From: Eubacteriales bacterium
GTDB taxonomy: Bacteria; Bacillota; Clostridia; Oscillospirales; JAAYXM01
Assembly: GCA_045636865.1 (NCBI GenBank)
Contig: JAZTYJ010000025.1
Span: 10,679-74,678 of the forward strand
Reading direction: 5' to 3'
DNA: 64,000 bases
Part shown: positions 10,125 to 44,325 of the stretch, one piece after another
Layout of the letters: each line of letters starts with the position of its first letter
How positions within the stretch are numbered: the first letter of the stretch is position 1
Translations under genes and position numbers: made by a program
Notes under the pieces: generated by a model
Database searches by the model: none
What the model saw: the letters and a program-made list of their open reading frames with translations, nothing else
Told to the model about the DNA's origin: nothing

Positions 10125-10405
10125 CCAACAAAAAAACGCTTTCGTCTCATTGTCGATTCAAAGAGACGAAAACGTTAAGTTCAAAACTGTTTCCGCGGTA
10201 CCACTCTTTTTCACCCTTACGGATGCACTTTGGATGCCAACACATCTTAACTCTGTTACGGGAGTGCCCGTCTGCCCCTACTGCAAGTTCACGGCAGCCG
10301 CTCAACGGTGAGTTCTGCAAGTCTTCCCCGATGTCTCGCACCACCCGACATCTCTCTCGAGGCGAAAGAATTTTGCATACTATTCCGCATCACTGCGTTT
10401 ACAAT
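10125..10405 (-). promoter_or_regulatory. T-box riboswitch leader, specifier CUC (leucine)
   Basis: Minus-strand elements:
- AGTA S-turn half, AGAGAG bulge and GGTGGTGCGA distal loop;
- specifier loop GAA-CUC-A (codon is the complement of 10310-10312);
- T-box sequence AGAGTGGTACCGCGG (complement of 10193-10207);
- terminator TTTTCGTCTC-n14-GAGACGAAAGCGTTTTTTT ending ~10130. Confidence 0.85.
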
Positions 10406-13632: not shown

Positions 13633-13790
13633 ACCTTTTTAAAAGTGTTGTGCTTTTCTCTGTTCTTTTGCCTGAGAGATTCAGCGAAAATTCGCCTTAC
13701 ACCTTCGGCACCCATTTAAGAGATTCTCCAGAGTTCCCTCCCCTTTCAGTTTCTTTCGATTCTGAAAGTTTCACAGGGCAATATTAAATT
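13633..13790 (-). promoter_or_regulatory. glycine riboswitch (one clear aptamer plus expression-platform hairpin)
   Basis: The minus strand reads CTCTGGAGAATCTCTTAAATGGGTGCCGAAGGTGTAAGGCGAATTTTCGCTGAATCTCTCAGGCAAAAGAACAGAG. This matches the conserved CUCUGGAGA...GCCGAAGG...CUCUCAGGCAAAAGGACAGAG core. It is followed by GCACAAC...GTTGTGC-GTTTTC. Confidence 0.8.
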
Positions 13791-19068: not shown

Positions 19069-19145
19069 GGCCCGGTAGTTCAGTTGGTTAGAACGCTAGC
19101 CTGTCACGCTAGAGGTCGTGGGTTCGAGCCCCATCCGGGTCGCCA
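19069..19145 (+). tRNA. tRNA-Asp (anticodon GTC), CCA encoded
   Basis: Hand-folded cloverleaf: acceptor GGCCCGG/CCGGGTC, anticodon arm CTAGC-CTGTCAC-GCTAG, T-arm GTGGG-TTCGAGC-CCCAT. Confidence 0.9.
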
Positions 19146-19152
19146 TTTTTTT

Positions 19153-19230
<78 letters not shown>

Positions 19231-29123: not shown

Positions 29124-29359
29124 CTCCCCTCTTTCAAGGACATTATATTCGTCGTGGTCTTGTATGATGTAACAAGCCCGACCGCAAATAAAAAACTGCA
29201 ACAACAGAAAGCCCTGCTTATGGGCCACTATTATTGCAGCTGGACTGGCATAGTATAAAACCTTAGCCTCTTTGCTTTGCGTCGCCGGCTTTCGCCGGGT
29301 TTGCCAAATATTCAATTTCTATCAGTTTATCACACTAAAGTTTTTCTGTCAAATATTAT

Positions 29360-31660
29360 TTAATCTTTTGCAAAAACCCAAAGGGTTTCGTTTGCGCGTT
29401 CATCCTCATCATTAAGCTTATATACAGTAAGAATAACGGTTTCACCATTGACCTTCTTGTAGGTGATTCTCGGAGCATTCCCTTCAATAAGCTGTTTTTT
29501 TATAGCATCATAATTCAGGAAACTTTCAACATATCTGTGAAAATCAGGGTGCACCATATCATTTATATACATCTCAAGAAGAGAAGAGAATTTATCTTCA
29601 TTCTCATTGTATCCAAGATATGCCGGCATAAGAATCCTGTGAGCTTTATTTGTGTCAAGAGAAACACGGTAGATTCCGTTATAGTGTTCCTTCACGACAG
29701 AAATCATTGTATCAATCTCACGGATTCCGGTCTTCGTTTGGACATAGCCGCTGTCTTCGTTTTTGACCGTACTCTTGTTTTCCTTGTTCTGGTAATAAGA
29801 AGCCTTTGCCTCATACATTCTCACCTCGGCCTCTCTTACCATTTCTTCGGTGTCTGTGTTCTGCGTTCTGTAAGATGTACCGATTGCGACATTATAATCC
29901 ATCGGCTTTAATCGTTCAACAAGAAGCTCTACTCCCTTCTGAATATCCGACGAATCTGTATCTTTTGCAAATACAAGGAATTCATCGCCGCCCATGCGAT
30001 ATATATTGTGGCCGTAGAATACCTCTTTCAAAGTGTTCGCAATAAATACAAGCATTTCGTCGCCTGCCGCATGGCCATATCTGTTATTGCGAAGATGAAG
30101 CTCGTTTACATCAATATAAACGCAGGAGAACTTGTACGGTTTTTCGCTGTCAAAATCGCAAATATCCCGCTTATAAACAACGCGATTGAGAACACCCGTG
30201 AGCGAGTCTGTCGTTGCAGCACGCTCTGTCTGGTTAAGATGTTTTTTGTTATAGAGCGCAATAGAGAAGCAAACTGCAATGTTTTCTGCAAGAAGCAAAG
30301 CATCTCTGCTCCTTGTTGGGTTGATTGCGCCAATAATAGAGATGTGATTGTCCTTACTTGTTACGGCAGCAAAAGAAACCTCTTTTATACCGTGAAATCT
30401 CAAGAATGTGAAAAAGCGTTTATTGGTTTCTGAAAGATGTTCATCCGGAACAATGCGCATAACATTCACGGTTGTTCCGCTCATCTTCCGAAGCTGCGCA
30501 GAATGATGCAACAACTCTTCGATAAAATACTTTCTGTCCTCACCCGTTAAGAGCTTACTCTCCTCCGTCGACAATATATAATGATAATCTTCGCCATCTG
30601 TATCAAAGAAGAAAGCCGACTGTGACTTCGCAAACAAACAAATCTTGCGGAGTGCTTCGGTTATATTGTTTTGCTGCTGATTGATTTCAAGGAGAGTCTT
30701 TCTTACATCAGACGAGCAGACAGTAACAGCATTTCTGCGTTTTTCGGCAGCCAGAATAAGCATTATATACAACGCCATCACAACAATCATTGCAAAGAAG
30801 GTGAGCAACAAGACCTTTGATATAGTATGTGTATCAGCAAATACCTGCGATTCATATCTCGCAAGAGTAATCTTCCAGCCAATATCCTCAATAGTAGAAT
30901 AATGAACATAGAGATTCTCTCCGTTATACGCCGAAACGAATGATGTGAACCCCTTATCGCTTTCCATCATCTCTTTATAGGAATAGCCATCGTTATATTT
31001 ACGGTCGCTGAGGAAGTTTATATTTCCGAGAGTTTCATGAAGCGAGTCAATAACAATGACACCATTTTCAAGGTCATGAACAAAAAGCTGAGCATCAAGC
31101 TCTTTTGCCATAAGGCTGTACCTTCTGTTTATAACCTCAGTATCGATGATACCGTACAATATACCGACAATCTCATCATTTACCTTTATCGGAACGGCAC
31201 TTCGGACAACTTCGTCACCTTCGGTTATGATAGACGGTACCCTTCCGCTTATGTACTTTCCCTTTGCGCTTTCCTCTTCAAAAGAAAGCTTGCCATTTAA
31301 GTCGAATTGTCTTCCGCGCGAAACAAATATGTTGTCAGGTGTCAAAATACCTATGCGCGAAAAAAGGCCTATAGGCTTAAAGGATTCAAAAACGCGGTCA
31401 TAGCTTTCGCCATCAGCATAAAGCTTTGCGGCAAAGTTTGCCATAGTGATAAGATTTTCTCTGTCAGAGATCATCTGCAGTGTGAGATCGTCTTTAATCT
31501 GCTTCGTCTGGATATGGAGCATCTCATACGCCTCGTTTTCGGCCTTTGTATAAAAATAACTCACCATCGACAAGAATATCACACACAATAAAAATACCGC
31601 TGTAACTGTACCCAAAACATTACTCTGTCTTTGTTTTCTTTTCTCGTATGTTATCGCCAT
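29360..31660 (-). CDS. sensor diguanylate cyclase (TM-Cache-like-TM, GAF-like, GGDEF, C-terminal PAS-like domain)
   Basis: 766 aa. LTGVLNR...YIDVNELHLRNNRYGHAAGDEMLV...IYRMGGDEFLVFA shows an intact GGDEF. No RxxD I-site lies 5 residues upstream. Confidence 0.8.
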   Translation of the reverse strand: MAITYEKRKQRQSNVLGTVTAVFLLCVIFLSMVSYFYTKAENEAYEMLHIQTKQIKDDLTLQMISDRENLITMANFAAKLYADGESYDRVFESFKPIGLFSRIGILTPDNIFVSRGRQFDLNGKLSFEEESAKGKYISGRVPSIITEGDEVVRSAVPIKVNDEIVGILYGIIDTEVINRRYSLMAKELDAQLFVHDLENGVIVIDSLHETLGNINFLSDRKYNDGYSYKEMMESDKGFTSFVSAYNGENLYVHYSTIEDIGWKITLARYESQVFADTHTISKVLLLTFFAMIVVMALYIMLILAAEKRRNAVTVCSSDVRKTLLEINQQQNNITEALRKICLFAKSQSAFFFDTDGEDYHYILSTEESKLLTGEDRKYFIEELLHHSAQLRKMSGTTVNVMRIVPDEHLSETNKRFFTFLRFHGIKEVSFAAVTSKDNHISIIGAINPTRSRDALLLAENIAVCFSIALYNKKHLNQTERAATTDSLTGVLNRVVYKRDICDFDSEKPYKFSCVYIDVNELHLRNNRYGHAAGDEMLVFIANTLKEVFYGHNIYRMGGDEFLVFAKDTDSSDIQKGVELLVERLKPMDYNVAIGTSYRTQNTDTEEMVREAEVRMYEAKASYYQNKENKSTVKNEDSGYVQTKTGIREIDTMISVVKEHYNGIYRVSLDTNKAHRILMPAYLGYNENEDKFSSLLEMYINDMVHPDFHRYVESFLNYDAIKKQLIEGNAPRITYKKVNGETVILTVYKLNDEDERANETLWVFAKD

Positions 31661-31784: not shown

Positions 31785-32456
31785 TTATCCGTGATATTCA
31801 CCATTGTACTGAATGAGCGTGACATCCTCTACACCCTCAACAGCCCGAATTTTCTCAAGAATGAATGTATCGTTATTCTTGCAGTAAACCTCAACTGCCA
31901 TCTCAACAACATCTTTTCTGACAGTTTTTGATTTAATGAAATACTTCATCTTGCCAAACGCGCGAATGATGTTATCTCCTGCTTCATCTGTAACATAATG
32001 AATAACCGCTATGTAAATTCTTCCTTTGAGCTGGTGCTTGTTGAAGATTATTATTATGAGCACCATAACAACAGCGGCAATAAGCACGAGCAGGTACATA
32101 TTTGCGCCCGCTGCGATACCGGATGTTATCGCCCAGAAAAGATAAAGAAGGTCAAGCGGATCCTTTACCGCAGTTCTGAAGCGGACGATCGAAAGAGCAC
32201 CGACCATACCAAGAGATATTACGACATTCGTACTGATTGCAAGTGTTATGACCGCTGTCATAATCGTCATACCGATAAGCGTTACAGCAAAGCTTTTTGA
32301 ATAAATAACACCTGTGTAGAACTTCTGATAAGTCAGGTATATAACCGCACCGATTATAATGGCGGTTATAAGACCAAGCGCAATATTTGTAAGGCTTAAT
32401 CCGTCAAATGCACCCGACTCCAGTATTGATTTTTTTATAACATCCTGAACACTCAT
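31785..32456 (-). CDS. DUF4956-family membrane protein
   Basis: 223 aa: 4-5 N-terminal TM helices (FRTAVKDPLDLLYLFWAI) plus a soluble C-terminal domain. Sits in the usual VTC/CotH neighbourhood. Confidence 0.65.
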   Translation of the reverse strand: MSVQDVIKKSILESGAFDGLSLTNIALGLITAIIIGAVIYLTYQKFYTGVIYSKSFAVTLIGMTIMTAVITLAISTNVVISLGMVGALSIVRFRTAVKDPLDLLYLFWAITSGIAAGANMYLLVLIAAVVMVLIIIIFNKHQLKGRIYIAVIHYVTDEAGDNIIRAFGKMKYFIKSKTVRKDVVEMAVEVYCKNNDTFILEKIRAVEGVEDVTLIQYNGEYHG

Positions 32457-32469
32457 TTTTTATCTCTCC

Positions 32470-33192
32470 TCAATTTTCATACCAGTATTTTGTGAACGCA
32501 TTCATATATTCGGTCTTCTCATAGCAGAGAACATATTTTGATACTGCTGTAAACTCCGAGGCGCGGTCTGGGAGTATCTCACGGACACCCTGTGGAAGAA
32601 ACTCCGTGAACTTGACCTCCATAACGCACTTCCCCGGTTCAAGCACAGGAAGCGTCGGGAGTGTCGCATCAAATATGTCGAAACTTCCGACTGCGGCGCG
32701 GACATCCATATCAAAGGTTATTCTTACAGTACCCTCATCGGCTATCCATGGCTCGCGGTCGTAATCTACTGTTACTCTCGGCCGCATAACATTCGATACA
32801 CACTCAAAATAGAATTCATTCAAAAGACTTTTGTCACTCTCCAGCAGGAAACCGTAATCTCCGTCTAAAATCTTATAAACCTCGTCGCGTGTAAGCGATG
32901 CCGCTTCTTTGAATATATAGCTTCCGTACTTTTTCTTTCTCTCAAGCTTGATGCTTGAATCAGAACAGTTATAGATTCGGATGCGGTATTTTTTTCGCTG
33001 CAGGAATCCGCCTTCCTTTTCTTCGTAGGCAGTATCGTAATAATCGTCAAAATAGAGACTCCGTATCATATATCCGCCGTTTTTTGCATGTTTATCAAGC
33101 GTAAGATACGGTGAAAGTCGTCTGCATATTACCTCTTTCTGAGCAGTATCAATAAGATACTTCCACTCGTTTCTGTATCGCTCAGCCTTCAT
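32470..33192 (-). CDS. VTC-domain protein (polyphosphate-polymerase-like triphosphate tunnel fold)
   Basis: MKAERYRNEWKYLI...YMIRSLYFDD...KYRIRIY...MEVKF are alternating charged beta-strands typical of CYTH/VTC tunnels. ATG 33192 overlaps the cotH stop by 11 nt and has a GGAGGA RBS. Confidence 0.65.
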   Translation of the reverse strand: MKAERYRNEWKYLIDTAQKEVICRRLSPYLTLDKHAKNGGYMIRSLYFDDYYDTAYEEKEGGFLQRKKYRIRIYNCSDSSIKLERKKKYGSYIFKEAASLTRDEVYKILDGDYGFLLESDKSLLNEFYFECVSNVMRPRVTVDYDREPWIADEGTVRITFDMDVRAAVGSFDIFDATLPTLPVLEPGKCVMEVKFTEFLPQGVREILPDRASEFTAVSKYVLCYEKTEYMNAFTKYWYEN

Positions 33193-34945
33193 ATGCATCC
33201 TCCACGACATTGCCGTCTGCATCTATATAGAAGCACTTTGTACCGTATTTCTTTCCGCCGTCGATATAGTAATAGTCAAAGGCGGTCTGGGTGTATCCGC
33301 TCTTGTTCGTCGCCGTTACTCTTACGAAGTACTGGCCTCGCGGAAGCATATCTATTTCAGTAGTCGGGAGCGGAACATCCTGCTTATCAAGTATGAGATT
33401 CCTGAAGTCGTAATCTCTTGCAACCTGTATGTCATAAGTAATCGGCTCAGCATCAAAATCAAACGAACTCTGGCTTGAGATTATAAGCTTATCACCTTTT
33501 TTTCTCGGTGCGTCAATAAAAAACGGCATCGGCTTTTCAAATGACGCCTTATAGAGGTTGTAGTTCAAATCAATCTCTGACGAAAGTCCCGCTACAACTC
33601 TGTCATACTGCGCAGATGTAAGCGGAAGATGAAGAATGTCGGGGTAAGAATAGACATACGGTTTTACAATAGAGGCATATCGCTTTGACATACTGTCTAT
33701 TTTCGATTTTGTAAGGTAATTTGCTTTAAGATCTTCTATTGCAGCATCAAGCGCCTTTCTGTATTTTTCGCTCTTGAGCGCTCTCTGGAACAGAACATTG
33801 CCCCAGTAGTTGCTGACGCCCGTTTCCCACTCTGCATAAGAAACTCTGTTCATCTCGGAATACTCGGTTTTGTTCAACATACCGTCGTTATCCCATGATA
33901 TAAAGTACCACTTATCAAGATTGAGCGGACTGTATATGTAAACATTTCGGCTCTGAGTATCAGCATTTCCCGTAAGAATATGGAACGCCATCCAGTAGCT
34001 TAAGTTTTCGATATCAAAATACTTATCAAGAACTTCATCAACAGGCTTTGAGAAATCGTTTACTTCCTCAAGCATTTTTATAAGCTTTCCATGGTCATCG
34101 CTGCCCTTTGTTTCTATAAGTTCTTCAAACGCCGCCTCGTCGAATGTCGAGTCTTCCTTCATTTTGATTATATCTTCGTATCTGTAAAACTCAAATACAT
34201 TTATCTTGTAAAGATGAGCGTTTGCATCAAGTCCATGAACCTTGAGTGCCTTTTTGTTCAGCTGTTCAACATAGGTGTAGATACCGTAATCGGTAAATTC
34301 ATTGTTGCCACCCTTCGTTGTATCCTTTACATAAAGATGGACAAACTTTGTGCGAAGTCCCATCATCTGCGGAATCTCCGAAATAAGGTCATAAGCCATC
34401 TTGTTGCGGAAACGGAGACCTTCGTTGACATGCTTATTGAGCGGAATGGAGGTATTCCCCATCCACATACCTTTATTGTCCTTAAGGCTTATCTTATAGT
34501 TCTTCACAGACTGGCGGCTCGACGTCTGACCTCGGATCTGTATTGTGCAGTTCGGCGAGACCTGCCCGTAACCAAGCTTTCCGGGAAGCGGACCTGACTC
34601 GTCTCCAATCTGCAAAAGACCCTCTACCTTATATCTTTCAACTCCCATATCCTCATAATCGAATACGGAATATGTGTTTATCTCACTCCAGGTGTGGTTC
34701 GTTTTTTCGCCATCGTTGCCTTCAGAAACGGTAAGATACATTGTTACAACATCTTCAGGCTTATCGACCGCGTACAAATCAGGCTTATCGCGAAGCTTAT
34801 ATTTTTCATTGTACTCAAGATCAGGCACATAAACACTTTCCGTGTTTTCGGGAAGCGCCTCCTCCTGCGGCAGAACTTCGGCGCAGCCTGATAAAAGGAT
34901 GCCGAGTATTATCACCAAAGGGATTATTCTGAACGTCTTTTTCAT
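33182..34945 (-). CDS. CotH-family kinase-like lipoprotein
   Basis: Lipobox LLSGC at the N-terminus, then a CotH-type core (...NKHVNEGLRFRNKMAYDL...YWMAFHILTGNADTQSRNVYIY...WYFISWDNDG). Its start overlaps the pelG stop (ATGA). Confidence 0.7.
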   Translation of the reverse strand: MKKTFRIIPLVIILGILLSGCAEVLPQEEALPENTESVYVPDLEYNEKYKLRDKPDLYAVDKPEDVVTMYLTVSEGNDGEKTNHTWSEINTYSVFDYEDMGVERYKVEGLLQIGDESGPLPGKLGYGQVSPNCTIQIRGQTSSRQSVKNYKISLKDNKGMWMGNTSIPLNKHVNEGLRFRNKMAYDLISEIPQMMGLRTKFVHLYVKDTTKGGNNEFTDYGIYTYVEQLNKKALKVHGLDANAHLYKINVFEFYRYEDIIKMKEDSTFDEAAFEELIETKGSDDHGKLIKMLEEVNDFSKPVDEVLDKYFDIENLSYWMAFHILTGNADTQSRNVYIYSPLNLDKWYFISWDNDGMLNKTEYSEMNRVSYAEWETGVSNYWGNVLFQRALKSEKYRKALDAAIEDLKANYLTKSKIDSMSKRYASIVKPYVYSYPDILHLPLTSAQYDRVVAGLSSEIDLNYNLYKASFEKPMPFFIDAPRKKGDKLIISSQSSFDFDAEPITYDIQVARDYDFRNLILDKQDVPLPTTEIDMLPRGQYFVRVTATNKSGYTQTAFDYYYIDGGKKYGTKCFYIDADGNVVEDAYEG

Positions 34946-36402
34946 TTCTTATCTTCCTCCAGCACATCTTCAAGAAATACTTTCATTTTTCGGAATACTC
35001 CTGATTTGTCCTCGCTTACAAGCGGTTGAACTGCAAGTATATAATACGGCAGGCGTTTCGTAAAATAATCGAGCCTGAGAGTCGCAACTATCAGAAACGC
35101 CATTGATGCAAGAAGGAACCCGAAGCCGTAATAAACCTGTGGCAGGAACAGCGATATCACCGAGAATACAACCGAGCATACCGCAAAGATTCCTGTTGCA
35201 AAAAATGCGCCTTTATAGTCAGTAAAATACAAAAGCATAAGCATTGTCATATTGCCGATGGCGTAAAGCCCATATCCTACACAGAGGGTTCTGAAATATC
35301 CTCTCATCATCTCATTGAATCCAAGCGGCAGGATATCGAGCAAAAATCCACCTGCGGCGATGAAGATAGCCGTACAGAGAAGCTGTTTTATGGCAGTATA
35401 GAGTGTTTCTGTCTTTAGTGTATCAAGCATCTCCTTCTCTGCCTGAAGAATATCTTTCACCGTACCTTTATCGTTATATAAGCTGTAATGGTTACGATAC
35501 TTTCCGTAGAAATTCACTTCAACCGATACAACAAAGTTTACCGTTGTTATAAGCGTTGTCATAAACGCCAGAAGTGCCGGCACATCGTGTTCAGGTGCGC
35601 CGTAGAAAAGCCCGTGAACCTTTACACCTACTTTTGAAAACCACATTATGACAAGATGTGCAAACATTCCGATATTCACAAAGAAACCCGCCAGCGTCAG
35701 ATGCAGATATTCATCCACCCACTCAAGGAAAACAAATGCTCCGACATCAGATTTCGGGAAATACTTATGCAGAAGCACAAGATTCCAGATAACCATAACG
35801 CCGTAGCCCACCGTTATGGAAAGAAGAAGCATCTCTATTACATACGATTTGAAAATAAGAGTCAGAATAAAACCGAGCACGAATATTACAAGTATCGCAG
35901 TAAGATACGAAAGAAAGATTCCTTTATAATCTTTTATTGCAGTCAGATAGCTCATCGCATTCCACACGATTATCATTTCATTGAAGAATATGAACATAAG
36001 AACCGAGCACATAAGATTTGCGCCTGAAAACGCGAGAAAGATCGTCCACAGCACACTTCCTACGGTCATCATAAGTGCGCTGCTTCCCCAGAATGACGGA
36101 AGGACTGCGCTCTTTTTCTCTTCATAGAGCATATCTGCAGTAAATCGCGTTATGGTCATTGAGAAGAAGGAGGTAACGGTAATTGATGCAAGCAGAGTAT
36201 AGGTTATCATACATATCAGAAGCTCTCTTGTTGCGGTTTCGACCCCCGCTCTTGCGCAAAGGAACATTATACCGAGCAGCAGAATGACTCCCAGAAGCAT
36301 CGGTCCCGAACAGATAACCGTAGCATAACCGTATGCTTTGACTGAGTTTAAGATTCCCTTTTTCTGAAAGAGCTTTCTGAGTTCAAACCCTATGCCTGCC
36401 AA
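34942..36402 (-). CDS. pelG: Pel exopolysaccharide export/flippase-like protein PelG
   Basis: MAGIGFELRKLFQKKGILNSVKAYGYA... is the hallmark PelG N-terminus, followed by ~12 TM segments. Confidence 0.8.
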   Translation of the reverse strand: MAGIGFELRKLFQKKGILNSVKAYGYATVICSGPMLLGVILLLGIMFLCARAGVETATRELLICMITYTLLASITVTSFFSMTITRFTADMLYEEKKSAVLPSFWGSSALMMTVGSVLWTIFLAFSGANLMCSVLMFIFFNEMIIVWNAMSYLTAIKDYKGIFLSYLTAILVIFVLGFILTLIFKSYVIEMLLLSITVGYGVMVIWNLVLLHKYFPKSDVGAFVFLEWVDEYLHLTLAGFFVNIGMFAHLVIMWFSKVGVKVHGLFYGAPEHDVPALLAFMTTLITTVNFVVSVEVNFYGKYRNHYSLYNDKGTVKDILQAEKEMLDTLKTETLYTAIKQLLCTAIFIAAGGFLLDILPLGFNEMMRGYFRTLCVGYGLYAIGNMTMLMLLYFTDYKGAFFATGIFAVCSVVFSVISLFLPQVYYGFGFLLASMAFLIVATLRLDYFTKRLPYYILAVQPLVSEDKSGVFRKMKVFLEDVLEEDKK

Positions 36403-37817
36403 CCTTCTTCAACCTCCTTATAAAGATTTCTGTATTTTCCGAGCATTATCGGATATCTGTAATGCTCGTATGCTCTCTTTTTTCCTATTTCGCCCATCGT
36501 GAGCCTTAACTCACGCGACTCGCACATAATTTCCATCTTGTCAGCGAGCTGTTCTCTCTGCATAGGCGGTACACAGTATCCTGCAACACCGAAGGTATCA
36601 CCAGGACTTCCTTCGAGAAGCTCACGGCAGCAGCCCACTTCTGTAGTTACGCACGGTCTTCCTGCTGCAAACGACTCAAGTACCGACAGAGGCTGTCCTT
36701 CGGAGATGCTTGTAAGTATCGTAAAGTCAAGCTTCTCAAAATACTCAACAACATTTACTCTTCCCGGCATTATAACCTTATCGTCTATGCCAAGCTGGGT
36801 GATGAGGTCGCGGCATTCCTGCGCGTACTCTTCATCATCAACGCCTCCCATTATGTGAAGCCTTACATTATCCATTCGCGTTGAGAGTTCAAAGAATGAA
36901 TATATCATAGTTTTAATATCCTTAATTGGTGCAAATCGTACAACAGCACCGATATCAACATATCCGTCGTCTTCCTTTATCGGGATATCACAGAATCTCT
37001 CGTAACTTATTCCGTTTTCTATAACATAACATTTTTCTCTCGGACATCCCATTTCAACCTGAGTTTCCCTTGCTCGTGTAAAGAGCGAGGTTACGCGGAA
37101 AGCCCGGTCATATATGAGATCTGAAAGCATATAGAAGAACTTTACCCATTGCCCCTTGAACGCCTTTCCAACCCATTTCGCACGAATTATTTCTTCTTCT
37201 CTTTCGCGGGTATATATACCATGTTCTGTAAGTAAAACGGGTTTATTCTTTATATAGCCGCCAAGGCACGCAAGAAGACCTCCATATCCCGTTGAAATAG
37301 CATGGTAACAGTCTGCCTCCGGAATTTCGCTACCCATAAGGTACAGAACAGGCAAAAGCCTTGATCGAACCGAATGGAATGCATCCGAAAAGGCGGTATA
37401 CGGAAATTCTGTCTGGCAAATTTCTATGAGAGTTTTCAAAAAGTGTTCACTTTTCAAATAACTCATCGGGTTTATCTTCTTTTTATGGTACATATCAAAG
37501 AGAAGTTCCCAGTCAGGCTTATCAGAAAATACAAGTCTTCTGAGCGCTTCGTTTTCTTTCTCCGAGAAGGTATGGTTAAACACCTTGTTTGGTTTAACTC
37601 TCAAGGCGTCATCAAGAAACACCTGCTTCACTTCCACAACATTCGGCGGAAGCTTATATACGAACTTGTCCTTGTCCTCAGCTTTTGCGCCTATAACCCA
37701 AAGAACAAATTCGTGCTCAGGCATCTCTGTTATATACTGATGTGCCCAGGTGGACACACCGCCGTTTATGTAGGGGTAGCACCCCTCAAGCACCATACAA
37801 ATTCTCATTGTTTTCAC
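36390..37817 (-). CDS. pelF: GT4 glycosyltransferase PelF
   Basis: MRICMVLEGCYPYINGGVSTWAHQYI (DUF3492/PelF N-terminus). C-terminal GT1/GT4 motif SISEGQPLSVLESFAAGRPCVTTEVG. Confidence 0.8.
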   Translation of the reverse strand: MKTMRICMVLEGCYPYINGGVSTWAHQYITEMPEHEFVLWVIGAKAEDKDKFVYKLPPNVVEVKQVFLDDALRVKPNKVFNHTFSEKENEALRRLVFSDKPDWELLFDMYHKKKINPMSYLKSEHFLKTLIEICQTEFPYTAFSDAFHSVRSRLLPVLYLMGSEIPEADCYHAISTGYGGLLACLGGYIKNKPVLLTEHGIYTREREEEIIRAKWVGKAFKGQWVKFFYMLSDLIYDRAFRVTSLFTRARETQVEMGCPREKCYVIENGISYERFCDIPIKEDDGYVDIGAVVRFAPIKDIKTMIYSFFELSTRMDNVRLHIMGGVDDEEYAQECRDLITQLGIDDKVIMPGRVNVVEYFEKLDFTILTSISEGQPLSVLESFAAGRPCVTTEVGCCRELLEGSPGDTFGVAGYCVPPMQREQLADKMEIMCESRELRLTMGEIGKKRAYEHYRYPIMLGKYRNLYKEVEEGWQA

Positions 37818-37822
37818 CAGAA

Positions 37823-39682
37823 TTATTTTAAATTGATTGTAACCGTTTCTTTTTCTGCGCGAAGGAGATACAGATTCCCCGTGAGGTGGGTAAGACTGCC
37901 GCCGTCAACGCTTTCATATTCTCCCTCATTGAAGCGAACAAAGAAATATCCCTCATCGTAGAAGTTTCCGATTTTCAGAACGAGTTCATCTTCCGTTCTT
38001 TCTTTTTCAACATTGATTGCCGCATATCTCTGCACCGCAGCCGATGTCTCAGACCCTGTAAGGTTTCTGATCATCGGAGCCGAGGTATAGAGATAATCAA
38101 GATATTCACCAAAGCTTTTCGAAAGACTTCTCCACCCCTTTTCCGCACCTCGCTCCGGGTCAAGCGCATCGTCAGGGTGCGTAAAGTGACTGTTTATAAA
38201 ATGCATATTAAGCTCTGAAACAAGTGCAAGCTCCATAAACGGAGTAAGCTCACAGCCCGAAATAACTCGTGGCTGATGCACTCTTCCATCAGGCAAAACC
38301 TCAAACTCCTGCACACAGCCGAACTTAAAATCGCCGTCAGGAAAATAGATTCCCGATATCGTCTTTATATGTGGATATGTATCAAGCAGAAAAGACTCTC
38401 CAACACTTGACATAATGTTTGAAGGTGGAACATAAAGCGATACATCAACACCCGGGAAAAGTCTGTCGCAAAGGTCAACAAGCGAATCAAACGCGCTCTT
38501 CATCGCCCTCTCACTTTCCCATGTTTTATAATCGTACAATCCCTCGTAGTCGCACTCACTCATACAAAGCGGCTGATGGTTATAACCATGATATCCGACC
38601 TCACCACCCTGACGGAGAAGCATATTTCCAAAATTCAGGAATGTTCCCTCATCCGGCTCCGACGGGGTTGTTCCGTCAACCTCATCGTCATAGCCCGTGA
38701 TTGCAAGCCCTGTGTATTTCATGCCGTACTTATCGGCAAAGTCCATCATTGCAGGCCACCAGATATTGACATAAAAGTCTCTTGTTGTTGCACCGAAATC
38801 ACGCATTATATATTCGTTACTTCCCTGCGGAATCTGCGACGGGAAGTCGTCGAGATAGAATGTTGACGCATTTATAACGGGGTAAACGAACACATCATCC
38901 ATAAGACTTAAGGCTGCCGCGTAGAATCCTCGCGTAACCCTTTCGCAAAGGCCTGTGTTATTTACAACAAACTTGCCTTTTCCGTATTCCGTTTCCCATA
39001 TAAGCGGTGCGCGACTTTCATTATCAACCCAGGCATGAATCTTCGCTCTGTTCTCGTCAAGGCGAACAGCCCATACCGAATCGTAGCCGTCTTCAACAAT
39101 AAAACTTCTGCCTCCGCCTACCATAAAACCATCTTCAATATAAATGCCTTCAAGATGTGCATTCTCCCAGGAAGCTTCAAGGATGCCGAGTGCACCCTCA
39201 AGCACGGATACATATATGTCTCTCTTAAGCGTAAGCGCAAACATTACAGCGCCACCGTCATATACCCAATCCCGCAATGTAATAATATTTTCGCCGACAG
39301 GTTCAAGATCAGTCAAAAGCACAATCACCTTATCGTACTTTGACAAATCAGGGAAGGCGTTTTCCGACAAATCGCAAGCATCACACCCTACCTTCATATC
39401 AGAGAGTATTGTCGGAAATTCATCGAGCGCATCGCGACTTTCAGGCTGTGTTGCATCAAACAGAACAAGTGTATTTTTCTCAATCCACTCGTTTGCCTCA
39501 CGCTTTGTGACAACACTTTCCTCTTCCATAAACCCGAGCGAGTTTTTATTGTAATTGTACTGTATTCCGCTTCGCTCAACAAAAAGAACAACTGCCATAA
39601 GCGCAAACATCAGCGCAACTACCAGCATACCGTTATATCTGAATTTAAGAAACCGTTCTTTTAGTTCTTTTAATTTTTCCAA
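37823..39682 (-). CDS. DUF2194 protein (Gram-positive PelA deacetylase-type, PelA_DA-like)
   Basis: N-terminal TM, then a large extracytoplasmic domain with a CE4-like HGYNHQP motif. Its position between the pelE-like gene and pelF matches the Gram-positive pelDEA(DA)FG order. Confidence 0.6.
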   Translation of the reverse strand: MEKLKELKERFLKFRYNGMLVVALMFALMAVVLFVERSGIQYNYNKNSLGFMEEESVVTKREANEWIEKNTLVLFDATQPESRDALDEFPTILSDMKVGCDACDLSENAFPDLSKYDKVIVLLTDLEPVGENIITLRDWVYDGGAVMFALTLKRDIYVSVLEGALGILEASWENAHLEGIYIEDGFMVGGGRSFIVEDGYDSVWAVRLDENRAKIHAWVDNESRAPLIWETEYGKGKFVVNNTGLCERVTRGFYAAALSLMDDVFVYPVINASTFYLDDFPSQIPQGSNEYIMRDFGATTRDFYVNIWWPAMMDFADKYGMKYTGLAITGYDDEVDGTTPSEPDEGTFLNFGNMLLRQGGEVGYHGYNHQPLCMSECDYEGLYDYKTWESERAMKSAFDSLVDLCDRLFPGVDVSLYVPPSNIMSSVGESFLLDTYPHIKTISGIYFPDGDFKFGCVQEFEVLPDGRVHQPRVISGCELTPFMELALVSELNMHFINSHFTHPDDALDPERGAEKGWRSLSKSFGEYLDYLYTSAPMIRNLTGSETSAAVQRYAAINVEKERTEDELVLKIGNFYDEGYFFVRFNEGEYESVDGGSLTHLTGNLYLLRAEKETVTINLK

Positions 39683-40557
39683 AATGCTATAGCCTCCTTA
39701 ACCCGTCTGGAAACAAACATTTTCTTGGACTGTATATCAGAAATCAATTCTCTTATCTTATCAGCCATCTTCATCTGGGAATAGTATTTGAGCTTGAGCA
39801 GTATTATTTCCTCAAAGTCACCGTACAATTCATCTGCCTTGGCAAGTATCTTCCCTGCCGTGCCGTAATTTTCAAGAGCAAATTCATTTTCGAAGTAATT
39901 TATGTAATCTTCCATCGTCTCCACACTTTTTAGCTTCTTTGAGACGAGCTGTGAATAGAGGTTTCTGTTCATTATCTCAACCTGACCCGAAAGGAGCTTC
40001 TGCTCGAGCACTAACCACAGAAAGTCACAGTAGCCGGAATGAACATCAATATCATCAGGGTTTTCTGCATATTCGCGGCTGAGTTCCCGGAGTTTCTCAT
40101 CGTTTTCCTTTGAGATTTCCACCATCGCAGTAACAGCATAATGGACAACTTCGGGGTCTTTGTTATTTCCCGCTTTCTGCAGAAATTCGACATATTCCGC
40201 CGGATTGTCATTCAACACATCCATTATTATCTCGCGGCGAACCTTCGGCGAATTTATGATAAGCGCCTCTTCGATTGCAACAAGTGCATCGTCATTTTTC
40301 TTTTCTTCAACTGCAATTCCTTTGTAAAGCGCAGAGTCAAGCTTCATTTTCTGCACACCGACGGCAATGGTGTCGTCTTTTTCAAATACTACCTGGAAGT
40401 GCAAGAACATAACCGCCATAAATCCCCAGAACGGAAGGCACAGCACCACGAAAAACATATATTTATGGACTTTTAAAAACTTGAAATGAGTTCCTAAGAA
40501 TGTAAAAATGCACAAAAGGATATGTATAAAAATCAAAACAACAGCCAAATGATTCAT
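39670..40557 (-). CDS. PelE-like membrane/TPR-like protein
   Basis: Two N-terminal TM helices plus a helical-repeat C-terminus. Called by position between pelD and pelA(DA); sequence-level assignment is weak. Confidence 0.45.
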   Translation of the reverse strand: MNHLAVVLIFIHILLCIFTFLGTHFKFLKVHKYMFFVVLCLPFWGFMAVMFLHFQVVFEKDDTIAVGVQKMKLDSALYKGIAVEEKKNDDALVAIEEALIINSPKVRREIIMDVLNDNPAEYVEFLQKAGNNKDPEVVHYAVTAMVEISKENDEKLRELSREYAENPDDIDVHSGYCDFLWLVLEQKLLSGQVEIMNRNLYSQLVSKKLKSVETMEDYINYFENEFALENYGTAGKILAKADELYGDFEEIILLKLKYYSQMKMADKIRELISDIQSKKMFVSRRVKEAIAFWKN

Positions 40558-40571
40558 ACATATCCCTCCTT

Positions 40572-43352
40572 TTATTTTATATTGATTTCCAGATCAAGAT
40601 TCTCAAATCTTGGCAGGATGAACTCAAGGTCATCCTTTGTCGCCTGCGCGAGAAGAATACCGAGTTTCCCTTCTTCGATTTCACCCAAGATATCGTTTGC
40701 TCGGATTTTACCCGATAGCATTTTGTCAACCTCTGCGTATGAATGCCCCTTTACGCCAATCTCCATAAACTCATAGGCAAAAACTTTTCTTTCTGCCATA
40801 TCCTTGAAGTTTAAGTAAACCTTGTCAAACTCTTCTCTGTGCAGAATGTGTGTTCCCTGCATATACTGGTTTTCGTATAAATGCTGATTGTAGTCATACG
40901 CGCGAAGAAGCGAAATTTCAACAAGATCGCGCAAAATCTTGAACAGGTTCACATAGTAAAGCGAGTTCTGCTCGGGCTTCACATGCCAGATGAAAATCAA
41001 GAGCTCAAGCTTGTCACGTCTCCAGACTCCTGCTGCATACATCGGCAGATTCGGCAGAAATTCCGTATTTCTCCAAATCTCATCATTTTTTATCTCATCG
41101 AGAATCGGCTTATATGTGTCAAGCGATATCGACCTTGAAACCGCGCTCAATATATCTCTCGACGACACTTCAAGTCGACCGAATGCACTCTTGTCGTTTA
41201 TTGAATATACGCTGAGGCTCTTGTTCTCAAGCGTATCCTCAAAGGTATCCATAATCTTGAGATAAAGCTTGTGCGGCTCAACGGTATCGAGCTTTCTCGT
41301 AACATCGAAGATTTTTCCGAAGCTGTCCTTTGAACCTATAATCTGCTTTTTGAGGTCACGCTTTTCGTCAAATGTATCCTGATAAAGCTCACGTGTAAAC
41401 TCAAGCTTTTCTTCAAGGAGACCTATCTGTTCATTGGCGAATCTTATTTTATCGTCCTTAGTAAGGCGAACATACCCTGAAACTGCTCCGACCAGGAAAA
41501 AGTAAACAAACGCAAACCAGTTCGAGGGTTCATAGAATATTGTAAGCCAGCTCGTTCCTGAAACAATCTTCGCAATAAACCACGCAACCGACGAAAGCCC
41601 CGCTGCAAAAAGTCCGGAGTAAAGACCATGAACGGTTGCAACTATAACGATAAACGCCATTCTGAAATCGACTATCGAGAACATTACCGATGAGCCCGTT
41701 GCGAGATTTAAAAGCTCCGTGATAATGAACATAAGCGCAATTTCCACAGCCTTTATTATGGGACTATGCTCCCCCAACCACTTTCTGACCCTACTCCAGA
41801 AATCCGTTACCTTGAGATTTTTTTCGACAAGGAATTTTTCATATTCTTCTTCGATGTCGTCTATAATAGATATTCTCGAAAACCAACCGTATTCATTTCG
41901 AAGTGCTGTGTTCTTTATCTCAAGAAGCGCCCCTTCTTCTTCGCCTGTGTACTTTACACGAAGAGACGGGTTTAATTCCGAAATCTTCCTCATCACATCA
42001 CCAAATGTGATATTGAACTCATCGCTTACATTGAGCGTGCCGATTCCTTCCTGCCAGTTTTCAAGGAAGCGCGCAACAAGAACCGAAACATCGTGCATAG
42101 AGATAAAGAAAGCGCCTGAGCCTTCTGTTTCCTTTAACGTAACAGTTCCTTTTTCCATATCGGCAAAAGCTCTGTTCAGGAAGTCACCCTCAAGCATTCC
42201 GCTGTACAGGTGAGGAATTCTTACAATCTTTATATCAACACCAAAATGCTTTGTATAGAATTCGCAAAGATTCTCCTTTGACAGCGTAATAACGCTTATG
42301 TCCTTTTTATTTGAATATGCACCGTCAAGAGACGAGAAATATATAACCTTTGCATCTTTTTGGTATTTTGCAGTATGTCCCAATATCTCACGCAGTTTTT
42401 CCGTATCAGGAGCTTCTTCCGAACGGTATGTAAGCTCCCTTGCAAAGAATACAACAACGTCAAAATCGTATGTCTCAAATATTCTATCATAAGGAATCTG
42501 CTTTCCGTTATAAACCTTGACTCTTCCCTTTGATTTTAGATGCGTCTCCCCTGCGATGAGTATATTATTATTTTCAAAAGTATCTTCTATGAATTTTTCC
42601 GTGACATAACCTGTATTTCCCACAAGTAAAATTCTTTTTGTTGTAAGAGTATTCGGATCTGTAACGATGCTGTTCTTGCTTGCAAGCTGTTCTCTTATCT
42701 CAAGAAGGTCGTTGTTGTTAACAACGTTGAGAAGACACTCAACCAGAAAATCGTCAAACGCGCCGCTCATGCCGTTTGAAATCATCTCTATCGCAACATC
42801 CTGAGAGAAGGCATCCTTATAGCTTCTTGTGCTCGTGAGCGCATCAAAAGCGTCAGCCATCGCGACAATGCGTGCAGCGATGGGTATCTCTTCTCCTTTC
42901 AAGCCTTCAGGATAACCTGTTCCATCTATTCTCTCGTGATGATATTTTGCAATATCCTTCGCGTGTTTTATGATTTTTTCATCAATGTCCAATGAAATTC
43001 CATCAATCATTTCATTGCCAAAAATCGTATGTTTTTTTACTATATCATATTCTATCGAAGAAAGCTTACCCGGAAAATTGAGGATACTTTCCGGAATTTT
43101 ACTTTTTCCTATATCGTGAAGTGAGGATGCGATTGACATATACCTTATGTCTTCTTCTGACAAAACATATTTATCTGTTACATTATTAAGCTCACGAAGC
43201 ATAAGCTCTGTGAGCATTCTTACATGATAAATATGAAAACCCGTTTCACCATTGAGCATCTCAGGGATGTTGTCGCTTGAAACATCAACAACTTCAAGAT
43301 ATTTTCTCTCGTCTTCATTATTCAGCACAAGAAGAGGGTTTACTGATGCCAT
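40572..43352 (-). CDS. pelD: tripartite fusion: HD-GYP phosphodiesterase domain + SDR/epimerase-like domain + PelD-like module (4 TM, GAF-like, degenerate GGDEF)
   Basis: - HD-GYP: SLHDIGKSKIP...KYHHERIDGTGYPEGL...ADAFDALTSTRSYK.
- Rossmann-type: ILLVGNTGYVTEKF, with LSK in place of the YxxxK tyrosine.
- Hydrophobic block at residues ~540-640.
- C-terminal GAF/GGDEF-like region lacking a GGDEF motif (RANDILGEIEEGKLGILL). Confidence 0.7.
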   Translation of the reverse strand: MASVNPLLVLNNEDERKYLEVVDVSSDNIPEMLNGETGFHIYHVRMLTELMLRELNNVTDKYVLSEEDIRYMSIASSLHDIGKSKIPESILNFPGKLSSIEYDIVKKHTIFGNEMIDGISLDIDEKIIKHAKDIAKYHHERIDGTGYPEGLKGEEIPIAARIVAMADAFDALTSTRSYKDAFSQDVAIEMISNGMSGAFDDFLVECLLNVVNNNDLLEIREQLASKNSIVTDPNTLTTKRILLVGNTGYVTEKFIEDTFENNNILIAGETHLKSKGRVKVYNGKQIPYDRIFETYDFDVVVFFARELTYRSEEAPDTEKLREILGHTAKYQKDAKVIYFSSLDGAYSNKKDISVITLSKENLCEFYTKHFGVDIKIVRIPHLYSGMLEGDFLNRAFADMEKGTVTLKETEGSGAFFISMHDVSVLVARFLENWQEGIGTLNVSDEFNITFGDVMRKISELNPSLRVKYTGEEEGALLEIKNTALRNEYGWFSRISIIDDIEEEYEKFLVEKNLKVTDFWSRVRKWLGEHSPIIKAVEIALMFIITELLNLATGSSVMFSIVDFRMAFIVIVATVHGLYSGLFAAGLSSVAWFIAKIVSGTSWLTIFYEPSNWFAFVYFFLVGAVSGYVRLTKDDKIRFANEQIGLLEEKLEFTRELYQDTFDEKRDLKKQIIGSKDSFGKIFDVTRKLDTVEPHKLYLKIMDTFEDTLENKSLSVYSINDKSAFGRLEVSSRDILSAVSRSISLDTYKPILDEIKNDEIWRNTEFLPNLPMYAAGVWRRDKLELLIFIWHVKPEQNSLYYVNLFKILRDLVEISLLRAYDYNQHLYENQYMQGTHILHREEFDKVYLNFKDMAERKVFAYEFMEIGVKGHSYAEVDKMLSGKIRANDILGEIEEGKLGILLAQATKDDLEFILPRFENLDLEINIK

Positions 43353-43452: not shown

Positions 43453-43478
43453 CACCCACCGTTATATTATGACAATAA

Positions 43479-43513
43479 AATCCCTATGATAGAACAAAAC
43501 TATCATAGGGATT
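43479..43513 (-). terminator. terminator after the 60-aa gene
   Basis: AATCCCTATGATAG-n7-CTATCATAGGGATT followed by TTTATT on the minus strand. Confidence 0.7.
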
Positions 43514-43516
43514 CAT

Positions 43517-43699
43517 TTAACGTTTTAACTTTGTTTTACTTTGCCTTTTTCTCATGTTGCACGATTTCCCGTTATCAAAGACACCGATGAAAGTTTTGTC
43601 TGTAATCTTCAACTCATTGGCATGAGTTGCTGTGTGAACTTCGTGGTGAAGTCCAGGGTTTCTCGTCTGATTATTATTTACATAGTAAAGCTGATACAT
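43517..43699 (-). CDS. small conserved-looking hypothetical protein (60 aa)
   Basis: Strong RBS AGGAGGT 8 nt before the ATG, plus its own terminator. The MYQLYYVNNNQT...HHEVH...IGVFDNGKSC pattern recalls a widespread family of small YYVN...HEVH proteins (recollection only). Confidence 0.55.
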   Translation of the reverse strand: MYQLYYVNNNQTRNPGLHHEVHTATHANELKITDKTFIGVFDNGKSCNMRKRQSKTKLKR

Positions 43700-44239: not shown

Positions 44240-44288
44240 CCTTGGTAAGGATGAGGTCGGCGGTTCAAATCCGCCTAACAGCTCCAAA
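44240..44288 (+). repeat. 49-bp direct repeat, copy 2: orphan 3' half of tRNA-Thr (putative attR)
   Basis: Identical to 19182-19230. The upstream sequence cannot form the acceptor, D or anticodon 5' strands, so this is a fragment and not a tRNA. Confidence 0.9.
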
Positions 44289-44325
44289 AGCCTTGGAAAC
44301 GTAATGTTTCCAAGGCTTTTTGTTT
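44287..44325 (+). terminator. terminator following the tRNA remnant (probably the original tRNA-Thr terminator)
   Basis: AAAAGCCTTGGAAAC-gtaat-GTTTCCAAGGCTTTTTGTTTG. Confidence 0.75.

Follow-up and report, generated by a model that had tools for sequence, protein, structure and literature searches.

PelD is the textbook case of a receptor with a degenerate GGDEF domain by which an exopolysaccharide synthase is licensed, and how such receptors read local as opposed to global pools of c-di-GMP is debated. What is the role of a PelD-like protein that also bears a c-di-GMP phosphodiesterase-type domain? The question is raised by a gene in a stretch of 64,000 nucleotides from a Eubacteriales bacterium (the window). 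Our preferred reading, to which we assign a probability of roughly 0.55, is that the gene product serves a Gram-positive Pel synthase as its PelD subunit, with the Class III layout preceded by an N-terminal HD-GYP phosphodiesterase, and that this Pel-licensing receptor would have in its built-in hydrolase a local sink or reset.

Domain layout and the pel operon

The open reading frame begins with ATG on the minus strand and encodes 926 residues plus a stop, occupying exactly positions 40572-43352; the sequence-only reading had proposed a single frame of this length with the same parts, which is borne out, the strand now being fixed as minus. From the N- to the C-terminus the protein comprises an HD-GYP domain (residues ~30-225), a degenerate SDR/epimerase-like domain (238-510), four transmembrane helices (530-632), a long stalk helix, a GAF-like domain and a degenerate GGDEF domain. 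The parts map as follows, with the evidence in brackets.

40572..43352, minus: whole gene, PelD-like protein with HD-GYP, degenerate SDR, 4TM, GAF and degenerate GGDEF parts (ORF list and translation; full-length orthologues)
42678..43265, minus: HD-GYP phosphodiesterase domain of the E-T-G / HD / HHE..DGTGYP type (Pfam, PDB, Foldseek, conservation)
41823..42641, minus: degenerate extended-SDR / NDP-sugar-epimerase-like domain (profile and Foldseek matches)
41457..41771, minus: four-helix transmembrane block, residues ~528-632, DUF4118-like as in PelD (hydropathy, AF2 helices)
41283..41456, minus: juxtamembrane stalk helix, residues ~633-690 (continuous AF2 helix 609-687)
40878..41282, minus: GAF-like domain, residues ~691-825 (C-terminal model against PelD 4etz/4dn0)
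40575..40877, minus: degenerate GGDEF domain, residues ~826-926 (Foldseek to PelD and diguanylate cyclases; profile match)
40692..40703, minus: I-site RxxD, R884-A-N-D887 (sequence, invariance)

A strong ribosome-binding site (AAAGGAGGA) and a sigma-70-like site, ~70 nt upstream, precede the pelD-like frame; a tRNA-like fragment upstream of it received no tRNA call from ARAGORN. The gene is the first of a Gram-positive pelD-E-A(DA)-F-G operon, continued by cotH, VTC and DUF4956, an accessory set known from pel loci of clostridia and streptococci. It clusters with pelE, pelF and pelG as expected of a pelD, and the synteny extends to 57-75 of 78 related loci.

39670..40557, minus: pelE-like, 295 aa, two N-terminal transmembrane helices and a helical-repeat domain (hydropathy; weak HEAT_2; syntenic in 75/78 loci)
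37823..39682, minus: gene in the pelA(DA) position, DUF2194, polysaccharide deacetylase-like (Pfam DUF2194 3.5e-145; synteny)
36390..37817, minus: pelF glycosyltransferase (NCBIfam PelF NF038011 1.9e-94, above cutoff; Pfam DUF3492 and GT1)
34942..36402, minus: pelG (Pfam PelG PF16933 3.1e-133)
31785..34945, minus: accessory cotH, VTC (polyphosphate polymerase-like) and DUF4956 (Pfam; syntenic in 57-59 loci)
29360..31660, minus: membrane sensor diguanylate cyclase, GGDEF motif intact, closing the cluster on its 3' side (Pfam GGDEF 2.6e-18; motif check)
29232..29315, minus: c-di-GMP-I riboswitch (Rfam RF01051, 63.7 bits against a gathering score of 35)
27738 to ~29123, minus: degenerate-GGDEF and EAL phosphodiesterase gene, preceded by the riboswitch (Pfam EAL 1.3e-60)

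Ahead of its GGDEF motif the cyclase of the cluster lacks an RxxD I-site in the canonical place. No c-di-GMP riboswitch was found ahead of pelD, the only one in the window being that before the EAL gene.

The C-terminal half has the features by which a PelD is recognized, namely GAF and GGDEF folds in the cytoplasm behind four transmembrane helices, with a dead A-site, an RxxD I-site and a second arginine. The proposed four-helix membrane block is hydrophobic over residues 530-632 and is resolved in the AF2 model as helices 530-552, 563-575, 577-597 and 609 onward, although DUF4118 matches in homologues are weak. An even number of helices places both termini on the same side of the membrane, and the HD-GYP, SDR, GAF and degenerate GGDEF domains would consequently all face the cytoplasm in the PelDEFG complex. 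The stalk is the best-conserved segment of the protein (mean identity 75%). The GGDEF motif itself is absent, the A-site reading EEGKL at 893-897, and the RAND sequence of residues 884-887 stands five residues upstream of this degenerate site, with the second arginine, R915, at +31. R884, D887 and R915 are invariant in 76/76 species with the fused protein and are conserved also in the wider family of 700-residue relatives. Their equivalence to R367, D370 and R402 of PelD is assigned by motif position rather than by residue-level superposition. Binding of c-di-GMP at this I-site is a prediction.

Foldseek results for the whole protein were dominated by HD-GYP and SDR matches, and a separate model of the C-terminus was used. 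Its best PDB match is PelD (4etz_B 6e-7, 4dn0 6e-6, ~281 aligned columns), at a low TM-score (~0.32) and a large rmsd, owing to differing domain orientations, and with a model pLDDT of 74, of moderate confidence. The GAF region alone matched 3ci6 and 5w10 at ~5e-3, and the family profile gave a weak match to the GGDEF domain 6khu (7.7e-4). With the retained I-site, these results agree with the proposal of a PelD-like C-terminus in which a GAF domain precedes a GGDEF fold lacking its motif. PelD was not reached by sequence when PDB sequences were searched with phmmer (protein) or hmmsearch (profiles A1 and A3), which returned HD-GYP, SDR and weak GGDEF matches only, and isolated C-terminal pieces gave no Pfam match, PelD_GGDEF (PF16963) staying silent on the isolated C-terminus even at E<=10. 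The latter model also misses the experimentally validated PelD of B. cereus, so a PF16963 match is not a necessary criterion for PelD.

Is the SDR-like domain still an enzyme? It has the Rossmann plus substrate-domain fold of an extended SDR: the family profiles match the UDP-GlcNAc 4-epimerase 3m2p (1.4e-5 with A1, 1.2e-14 with A3), matches to 3m2p and TDH structures span 1e-5 to 4e-17, and Foldseek returns UDP-sugar epimerases at ~1e-9. The GxxGxxG motif and S/T-Y-K triad of that class are lacking. The cofactor motif is degraded to G245-N-T-G248-Y-V-T251, G248 being glycine in only 25/76 species, and the catalytic tyrosine and lysine positions hold I352 and T356, which vary as K/R/I and A/S/T in the clade, positions 352, 356 and 359 all being variable. 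Both motifs named previously were found, GNTGY at 245 and ITLSK at 355, and the register alone needs correction: when aligned by HMM with two SDR structures, the protein has I352 at the tyrosine position, three residues before ITLSK, and T356 at that of the lysine. The conclusion that the domain is non-catalytic stands, since neither register offers a tyrosine.

The HD-GYP domain and its likely activity

Assignment of the N-terminal domain is supported by Pfam HD_5 (1.5e-27), by the PDB sequence of PmGH (4mcw, 2e-36 to 3e-35) and by Foldseek matches to 4r8z and 4mcw (~1e-11 to 1e-12). Both signatures are intact as had been described, HDIGK at residue 79 and HHERIDGTGYPEGL at 138-151. The most informative reference is PmGH, the Persephonella marina GAF-HD-GYP protein and trinuclear-iron c-di-GMP phosphodiesterase, with which the domain has 39% identity over ~190 residues. 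All eight metal ligands are common to both (E36=E185, H40=H189, H79=H221, D80=D222, H108=H250, H138=H276, H139=H277, D167=D305), as is the E-T-G signature, and K225, Y285, R314 and K317 have their counterparts in K83, Y147, R176 and K179; G146-Y147-P148 is present, and D170 is conserved within the PmGH activity and contact set (D183, K225, D308, Y285, R314, K317). Residues E36, H40, H79, D80, K83, H108, H138, H139, E140, D143, G146, Y147 and P148 are identical in 76/76 species, the ligand D167 is kept in 75/76, and for R176 and K179 the figure is 75-76 of 76. Ligands and E-T-G signature agree with the active trinuclear PmGH class, and the domain is apparently catalytically equipped as a c-di-GMP phosphodiesterase; the earlier suggestion of an apparently active enzyme gains from a full alignment in which the catalytic set is complete. 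There are also differences from PmGH. The domain is tethered here to a membrane receptor, and the position of D183 is occupied by Asn34, invariant across the fused clade, a caveat on which the sequence-only reading was silent. The PmGH D183A mutant is inactive, whereas the active V-cGAP3 has serine at this position. HD-GYP domains usually lie C-terminal to sensor domains; here the domain is N-terminal, with no sensor domain upstream.

Could the domain serve mainly for binding? It might be a second c-di-GMP sensor, or its GYP motif might dock a GGDEF cyclase at the Pel complex, as has been proposed for the catalytically weak RpfG. Precedents are at hand, since a survey of HD-GYP proteins describes inactive members working through protein-protein interactions and a degenerate HD-GYP domain fused to PilZ receptor domains, and since DvhD is an HD-GYP-type c-di-GMP receptor whose complex with c-di-GMP has been solved. 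The asparagine at the D183 equivalent would fit such a role, as would the GGDEF cyclase gene that is linked to the operon in this window and in six related loci. The known non-catalytic HD-GYPs, however, have a degraded HD or HHE motif (DvhD reads 'SQVGK' and 'MNEH' there), the invariance of metal ligands, K83, R176 and K179 over 76 species is hard to account for without catalysis, and a cyclase homologue adjoins pelD in only 6/78 related loci. We therefore regard a mainly scaffolding domain as rather unlikely.

Still less probable, in our view, is activity on another nucleotide, such as 3'3'-cGAMP or pGpG, which would tie Pel to a signal other than the I-site ligand. The substrate range of HD-GYP domains is unreadable from sequence, and the match to the cGAMP-specific V-cGAP3 (5z7c, 5e-29) is near that to PmGH (2e-36). 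Yet it is c-di-GMP hydrolases that match best and that bear the E-T-G trinuclear signature, the guanine-contact residues R314 and K317 of PmGH are kept as R176 and K179, and the locus is otherwise full of c-di-GMP parts (I-site, GGDEF, EAL and c-di-GMP-I riboswitch).

Spread and origin of the fusion

The same unbroken frame of 920-930 residues recurs in the genomes of 76 species representatives, isolates included, with identities of 46-86%, and in >120 protein clusters. Most carriers are Oscillospirales-type Clostridia of the gut, and the synteny is shared; among them are the cultured Angelakisella massiliensis and Pseudoflavonifractor phocaeensis. By domain, identity amounts to 64% for HD-GYP, above the 47% for SDR and the 50% for the degenerate GGDEF. 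That the fusion is a frameshift or misassembly, or the C-terminal half a generic GAF-GGDEF protein unrelated to Pel, is hardly credible: Pfam finds the HD domain alone in the whole protein and the Foldseek scores of GAF/PHY-GGDEF cyclases approach that of PelD, but the unbroken frame is conserved across species in independent assemblies, the gene heads pelE-A-F-G in related loci, the combination of four helices, GAF and degenerate GGDEF with dead A-site and retained I-site is the PelD signature, and the 700-residue part belongs to a family of >360 clusters, from which a single sister locus, L080, was inspected and proved to be a pel locus. The sequence-only reading had named three ways in which it could fail, and each time the opposite was found, the C-terminus being PelD-like, the metal ligands present and invariant, and the fusion kept across species.

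The wider family (1060 matches) has as its typical member a protein of ~700 residues, aligned from its second residue and starting at the SDR domain; in the search of representatives, HD-GYP occurs only in the query's own cluster and one other (P0125). One of the clusters of 700-residue relatives has a Bifidobacterium member. In a neighbour-joining tree of the common 700 residues, which included the fused proteins and Class III PelDs of ~700 residues, the former group together as one clade within the Class III PelD family, indicating a single origin. A 714-residue protein (P0121, 52% identity) was considered as the ancestral unfused form and rejected: it nests in the fused clade and retains the last HD-GYP helix, which points to secondary loss. 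Nor does an adjacent HD-GYP gene offer itself as the source, L080 from the sister group having none beside pelD. The HD-GYP core has disappeared from one nested lineage (L079), and the domain is therefore dispensable in at least one background.

The fused receptor and its known counterparts

What would a hydrolase gain from being part of the receptor? Under our preferred reading of a built-in sink, the tethered HD-GYP domain would break down c-di-GMP beside the receptor; local hydrolysis would raise the activation threshold and shield the synthase from the global pool, and would allow its fast reset once cyclase input ends, which amounts to a self-limiting switch. A stronger version, that of a self-contained receptor-enzyme, seems doubtful to us: here the SDR relic, the stalk helix and the transmembrane bundle would link the I-site allosterically to the HD-GYP domain, so that occupancy of the one and activity of the other are coupled. 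If it were true, c-di-GMP binding would trigger Pel synthesis and, somewhat later, the breakdown of c-di-GMP itself (or the reverse); the synthase would have a pulse-like or adaptive output, and the degenerate SDR would be the coupling module. A conserved natural fusion offers a genetically simple test case for a hard-wired local sink at a synthase, and points to Pel as a likely c-di-GMP-controlled matrix polymer in many uncultured Clostridia of ruminant and other animal guts.

The closest known counterpart is Class III PelD, which consists of a degenerate SDR, a DUF4118/4TM block, a GAF and a degenerate GGDEF domain (PMC7112168, PMC7890745); the SDR-extended Gram-positive PelD to which the sequence-only reading referred is the one described in Whitfield et al. 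2020 (PMC7112168) and in the four-class scheme (PMC7890745). Residues 238-926 show exactly this architecture and fall into the one homologous family, and the operon (pelDEA(DA)FG with cotH, VTC and DUF4956), the kept I-site, the dead A-site and the degraded SDR motifs are likewise the same. The difference is the ~225-residue HD-GYP domain with its full catalytic set ahead of the SDR. Strictly, Class III is defined by its four domains and nothing else; all four are present here plus HD-GYP, and the protein is most aptly termed a Class III derivative. An HD-GYP domain and PelD together were not found in the papers searched, and the sequence-only reading cited no such fusion either: the published classes I-IV (PMC7890745) contain no HD-GYP class, and a published survey of HD-GYP architectures never mentions PelD or an epimerase. 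The HD-GYP-fused layout extends the four-class scheme.

The Class I PelDs of P. aeruginosa and B. cereus (4dn0, 4etz, 4eu0-type) also have four transmembrane helices, a GAF domain and a degenerate GGDEF domain with RxxD and a downstream arginine, spaced by 31 residues here, 32 in B. cereus and 35 in P. aeruginosa, and are likewise encoded by the first gene of the synthase core. Residues of this I-site are essential to PelD function in both species. The present protein differs in its two additional N-terminal cytoplasmic domains and in a sequence similarity to Class I that is undetectable with phmmer, hmmsearch and PF16963.

Composite c-di-GMP proteins, such as ECA3548 with a degenerate HD-GYP joined to PilZN-PilZ and the GGDEF-HD-GYP and GGDEF-EAL hybrids, similarly unite c-di-GMP binding and turnover, or a relic of it, in one polypeptide or complex; the concept of local c-di-GMP pools is cited in the HD-GYP survey. 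The HD-GYP domain of ECA3548 is degenerate, unlike the apparently catalytically equipped domain considered here, and in the hybrids GGDEF usually regulates the enzyme rather than licensing a polysaccharide synthase. The local c-di-GMP modules of the E. coli cellulose synthase presumably follow a comparable logic of local signalling; in the clostridial protein an apparently active hydrolase, judged by its conserved residues, is covalently joined to the synthase's own receptor subunit.

A single reading frame with an HD-GYP domain

The pelD gene is a single ATG-initiated reading frame of 926 codons (ORF list and translation), as the sequence-only reading had claimed. A canonical ribosome-binding site precedes it, and some 70 nt 5' lies a match to a sigma-70-like promoter. 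The gene and its surroundings upstream are as follows.

43352 down to 40572, minus strand: pelD
~43470-43510: terminator (hairpin plus T-run) after the 60-aa frame, immediately upstream of the promoter-like site
43519-43698, minus strand: small 60-aa reading frame with a good ribosome-binding site
~44240-44290, plus strand: resembles a tRNA 3' half (T-arm GGTTCAAATCC, acceptor end), within the gap of 850 bp that lies upstream of pelD
46518-48452, minus strand: 644-aa reading frame
48684-50015, minus strand: 443-aa reading frame

The tRNA-like fragment, with terminator-like hairpins on either side, is recognised by neither ARAGORN nor Rfam and may represent an integration scar. For the 644-aa and 443-aa frames, both upstream of the locus, Pfam gave nothing at E<=0.01.

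The motifs quoted in the sequence-only reading were located at residue 79 (HDIGK), residues 138-151 (HHERIDGTGYPEGL) and residue 245 (GNTGY), and its hydrophobic block spans residues 530-632. The only Pfam match in the protein is HD_5/HD (1.5e-27). In PDB sequence searches residues ~30-223 match the HD-GYP phosphodiesterases PmGH of Persephonella marina (4mcw, 2e-36), the cGAMP-specific V-cGAP3 and PA4781, and a full-length AlphaFold2 model (pLDDT 77) matches HD-GYP structures at ~1e-11 to 1e-12 in Foldseek. The domain's E-T-G signature and full set of ligands are those of the active trinuclear PmGH subgroup, and comparison with PmGH indicates that the guanine-contacting residues R176 and K179 are retained. 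Conservation across a 76-sequence alignment is strict: the equivalents of the eight PmGH metal ligands are invariant except D167 (75/76), and so are K83, E140, D143 and G146-Y147-P148. Both signature motifs that the sequence-only reading called intact are indeed present. Mean identity over these sequences is 64% for the HD-GYP domain, 47% for the SDR-like domain and 50% for the degenerate GGDEF domain.

One position departs from the PmGH pattern. N34 (window 43251-43253, minus strand) aligns with D183 of PmGH, whose D183A mutant is inactive, and is an invariant asparagine throughout the alignment of 40 fused orthologues; V-cGAP3, an active enzyme, has serine there. In addition, no sensor domain lies in front of this HD-GYP domain.

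The degenerate SDR and the PelD-like C-terminus

A profile of the 40 orthologues matches UDP-GlcNAc 4-epimerase (3m2p) over residues 240-462 at 1.4e-5, SDR matches improve to 4e-17 with a profile of the wider ~700-aa family, and the whole-protein model matches NDP-sugar epimerases at ~1e-9 in Foldseek. The sequence ITLSK, previously read as the catalytic position, does occur at residue 355 and lacks the tyrosine, but HMM alignment with two SDR structures sets the register three residues earlier, with I352 at the position of the catalytic Tyr and T356 at that of the Lys. The tyrosine is absent in both registers. The catalytic-triad positions are variable, and at G248, the SDR glycine, only 25 of the 76 sequences have Gly.

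For the model of residues 636-926 (pLDDT 74) the best PDB match is Pseudomonas aeruginosa PelD (4etz_B, 6e-7), which upholds the proposed PelD-like nature of the C-terminal half. The c-di-GMP complex 4dn0 matches at 6e-6; below PelD come other GAF/PHY-GGDEF proteins and single GAF or GGDEF domains. About 281 aligned columns extend across both GAF and GGDEF domains; a difference in how the domains are oriented relative to each other keeps the TM-score low (~0.32), so the match to this model backs the fold and the domain order rather than fine detail. The wider-family profile gives a weak sequence match to a GGDEF domain (6khu, 7.7e-4). The GGDEF motif itself is missing, as had been noticed, with EEGKL in its place, preceded by RAND (884-887). 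The I-site residues R884 and D887 and a second arginine, R915, are invariant in the 76 sequences and conserved throughout the ~700-aa family; PelD of P. aeruginosa and Bacillus cereus requires its RxxD motif and downstream Arg for binding and for biofilm formation. Selection has thus maintained the residues of the phosphodiesterase site and of the I-site, but not the SDR active site. With four transmembrane helices the two termini fall on the same side of the membrane, and given a Lys/Arg-rich segment before the first helix all four soluble domains are predicted to be cytoplasmic.

The operon, its neighbours and the distribution of the fusion

Downstream of pelD the locus continues with genes of Pel synthesis and, past them, of c-di-GMP turnover.

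Directly downstream, same strand: PelE-like protein, two TM helices plus helical repeats
Downstream, same strand: DUF2194 protein in the position of the PelA deacetylase
Downstream, same strand: PelF (NCBIfam equivalog, 1.9e-94)
Downstream, same strand: PelG (3e-133)
Downstream, same strand: CotH, VTC polyphosphate-polymerase-like and DUF4956 proteins
29360-31660, minus strand: 766-aa membrane sensor protein with intact GGDEF, 3' end of the pel cluster
29232-29315, minus strand: c-di-GMP-I riboswitch (RF01051, 63.7 bits), just past the cluster end
27738 to ~29123, minus strand: degenerate-GGDEF plus EAL phosphodiesterase gene, directly downstream of the riboswitch

The pelDEA(DA)FG layout with accessory genes has been described in clostridia and streptococci (Whitfield et al. 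2020, PMC7112168), and the order pelD-E-A-F-G-cotH-VTC-DUF4956 is retained in related loci wherever the contig reaches. A motif check of the 766-aa sensor found no canonically placed RxxD I-site upstream of its GGDEF motif. Its homologues occur in six loci (L002, L007, L008, L011, L012, L014), mostly upstream of pelD; it may be a dedicated cyclase of this Pel system, although the two are linked in only 6 of 78 loci. The placement of the riboswitch directly upstream of the EAL gene raises the possibility that a c-di-GMP-sensing RNA controls a c-di-GMP hydrolase adjoining the Pel locus. Elsewhere in the window a T-box leader, a glycine riboswitch and two tRNA genes (10159-10402, minus; 13650-13741, minus; 19069-19225, plus) are ordinary Firmicutes features.

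In the protein database more than 120 clusters match over the full length of the query, with lengths of 918-969 aa and identities of 54-100%; NCBI labels the orthologues merely 'HD domain-containing protein'. A scan of species-representative genomes found 78 loci, and in 76 the gene is full length; recurrence in 76 such genomes excludes a frameshift or assembly artefact and establishes that two genes have not been artificially joined. Most carriers are MAGs from ruminants or other animal guts, under the labels Clostridia, Eubacteriales, Acutalibacteraceae, Oscillospiraceae or Ca. Flemingiibacterium; Pseudoflavonifractor phocaeensis and Angelakisella massiliensis are isolates. In the carriers that diverge most (L059, L060, L061, L064, L075; Pseudoflavonifractor, Angelakisella, Ruthenibacterium, Allofournierella-type) ~250-400 extra nt separate the end of the PelD match from pelE, and the L060 frame stops ~300 nt beyond that end, at 13021, which suggests a C-terminal extension in this sub-clade.

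Residues 225-926, searched against a library of 1.8 billion representatives, have 1060 relatives, 364 of these below 1e-30. Nearly all are ~700 aa long and align from their second residue; these are the SDR-extended PelDs already known. Of the 150 matches listed, just two have ~225 extra N-terminal residues, the representative of the query's own cluster (P0034) and P0125, and in P0125 they are confirmed as HD-GYP. In a neighbour-joining tree of the shared 700 residues all HD-GYP-bearing sequences form one clade with ordinary 700-aa sisters; the sister locus L080 has a pel operon of the same make-up and no HD-GYP gene adjoining pelD. P0121 (locus L079, 1-700) nests in the fused clade without the HD-GYP core; its retained similarity to the last helix and linker suggests secondary loss of the phosphodiesterase.

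Proposed local c-di-GMP depletion and the place among PelD proteins

What could a phosphodiesterase do on a c-di-GMP receptor? The most economical reading, which agrees with the overall interpretation of the sequence-only reading, is a tethered hydrolase depleting c-di-GMP at the receptor. Such local removal would make the activation threshold higher, shield the synthase from c-di-GMP in the bulk pool and hasten switch-off. This reading carries the caveats of the invariant Asn at the D183 equivalent, the missing sensor and a lineage that has dispensed with the domain. Alternatively, the HD-GYP domain could serve as a sensor or scaffold without catalysis, its GYP motif recruiting a GGDEF cyclase, for instance; non-catalytic HD-GYPs working through protein interactions are on record, as is a degenerate one fused to PilZ domains (Galperin and Chou survey), but the strict conservation of the catalytic set speaks against this role. 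Action on a different substrate, in a domain that also matches V-cGAP3, appears less probable still.

Galperin and Chou's survey of HD-GYP architectures, in which these domains normally lie C-terminal to sensors, never mentions PelD or an epimerase, and our full-text literature search found no published PelD/HD-GYP/epimerase fusion. The fusion is genuine and clade-wide, and apparently undescribed. Four PelD classes have been defined (Whitfield et al. 2020, PMC7112168; commentary, PMC7890745) and were still in use in a 2025 S. intermedius paper: DUF4118-GAF-degenerate GGDEF (I), the same with an active SDR (II) or a degenerate SDR (III), and a degenerate SDR without GGDEF (IV). None includes an HD-GYP domain, and we therefore rate the protein as a Class III PelD to which an HD-GYP has been added. 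It is a variant by domain fusion and not a new system, but with its cultured carriers it provides a clean natural experiment for studying how c-di-GMP signals locally at a polysaccharide synthase.
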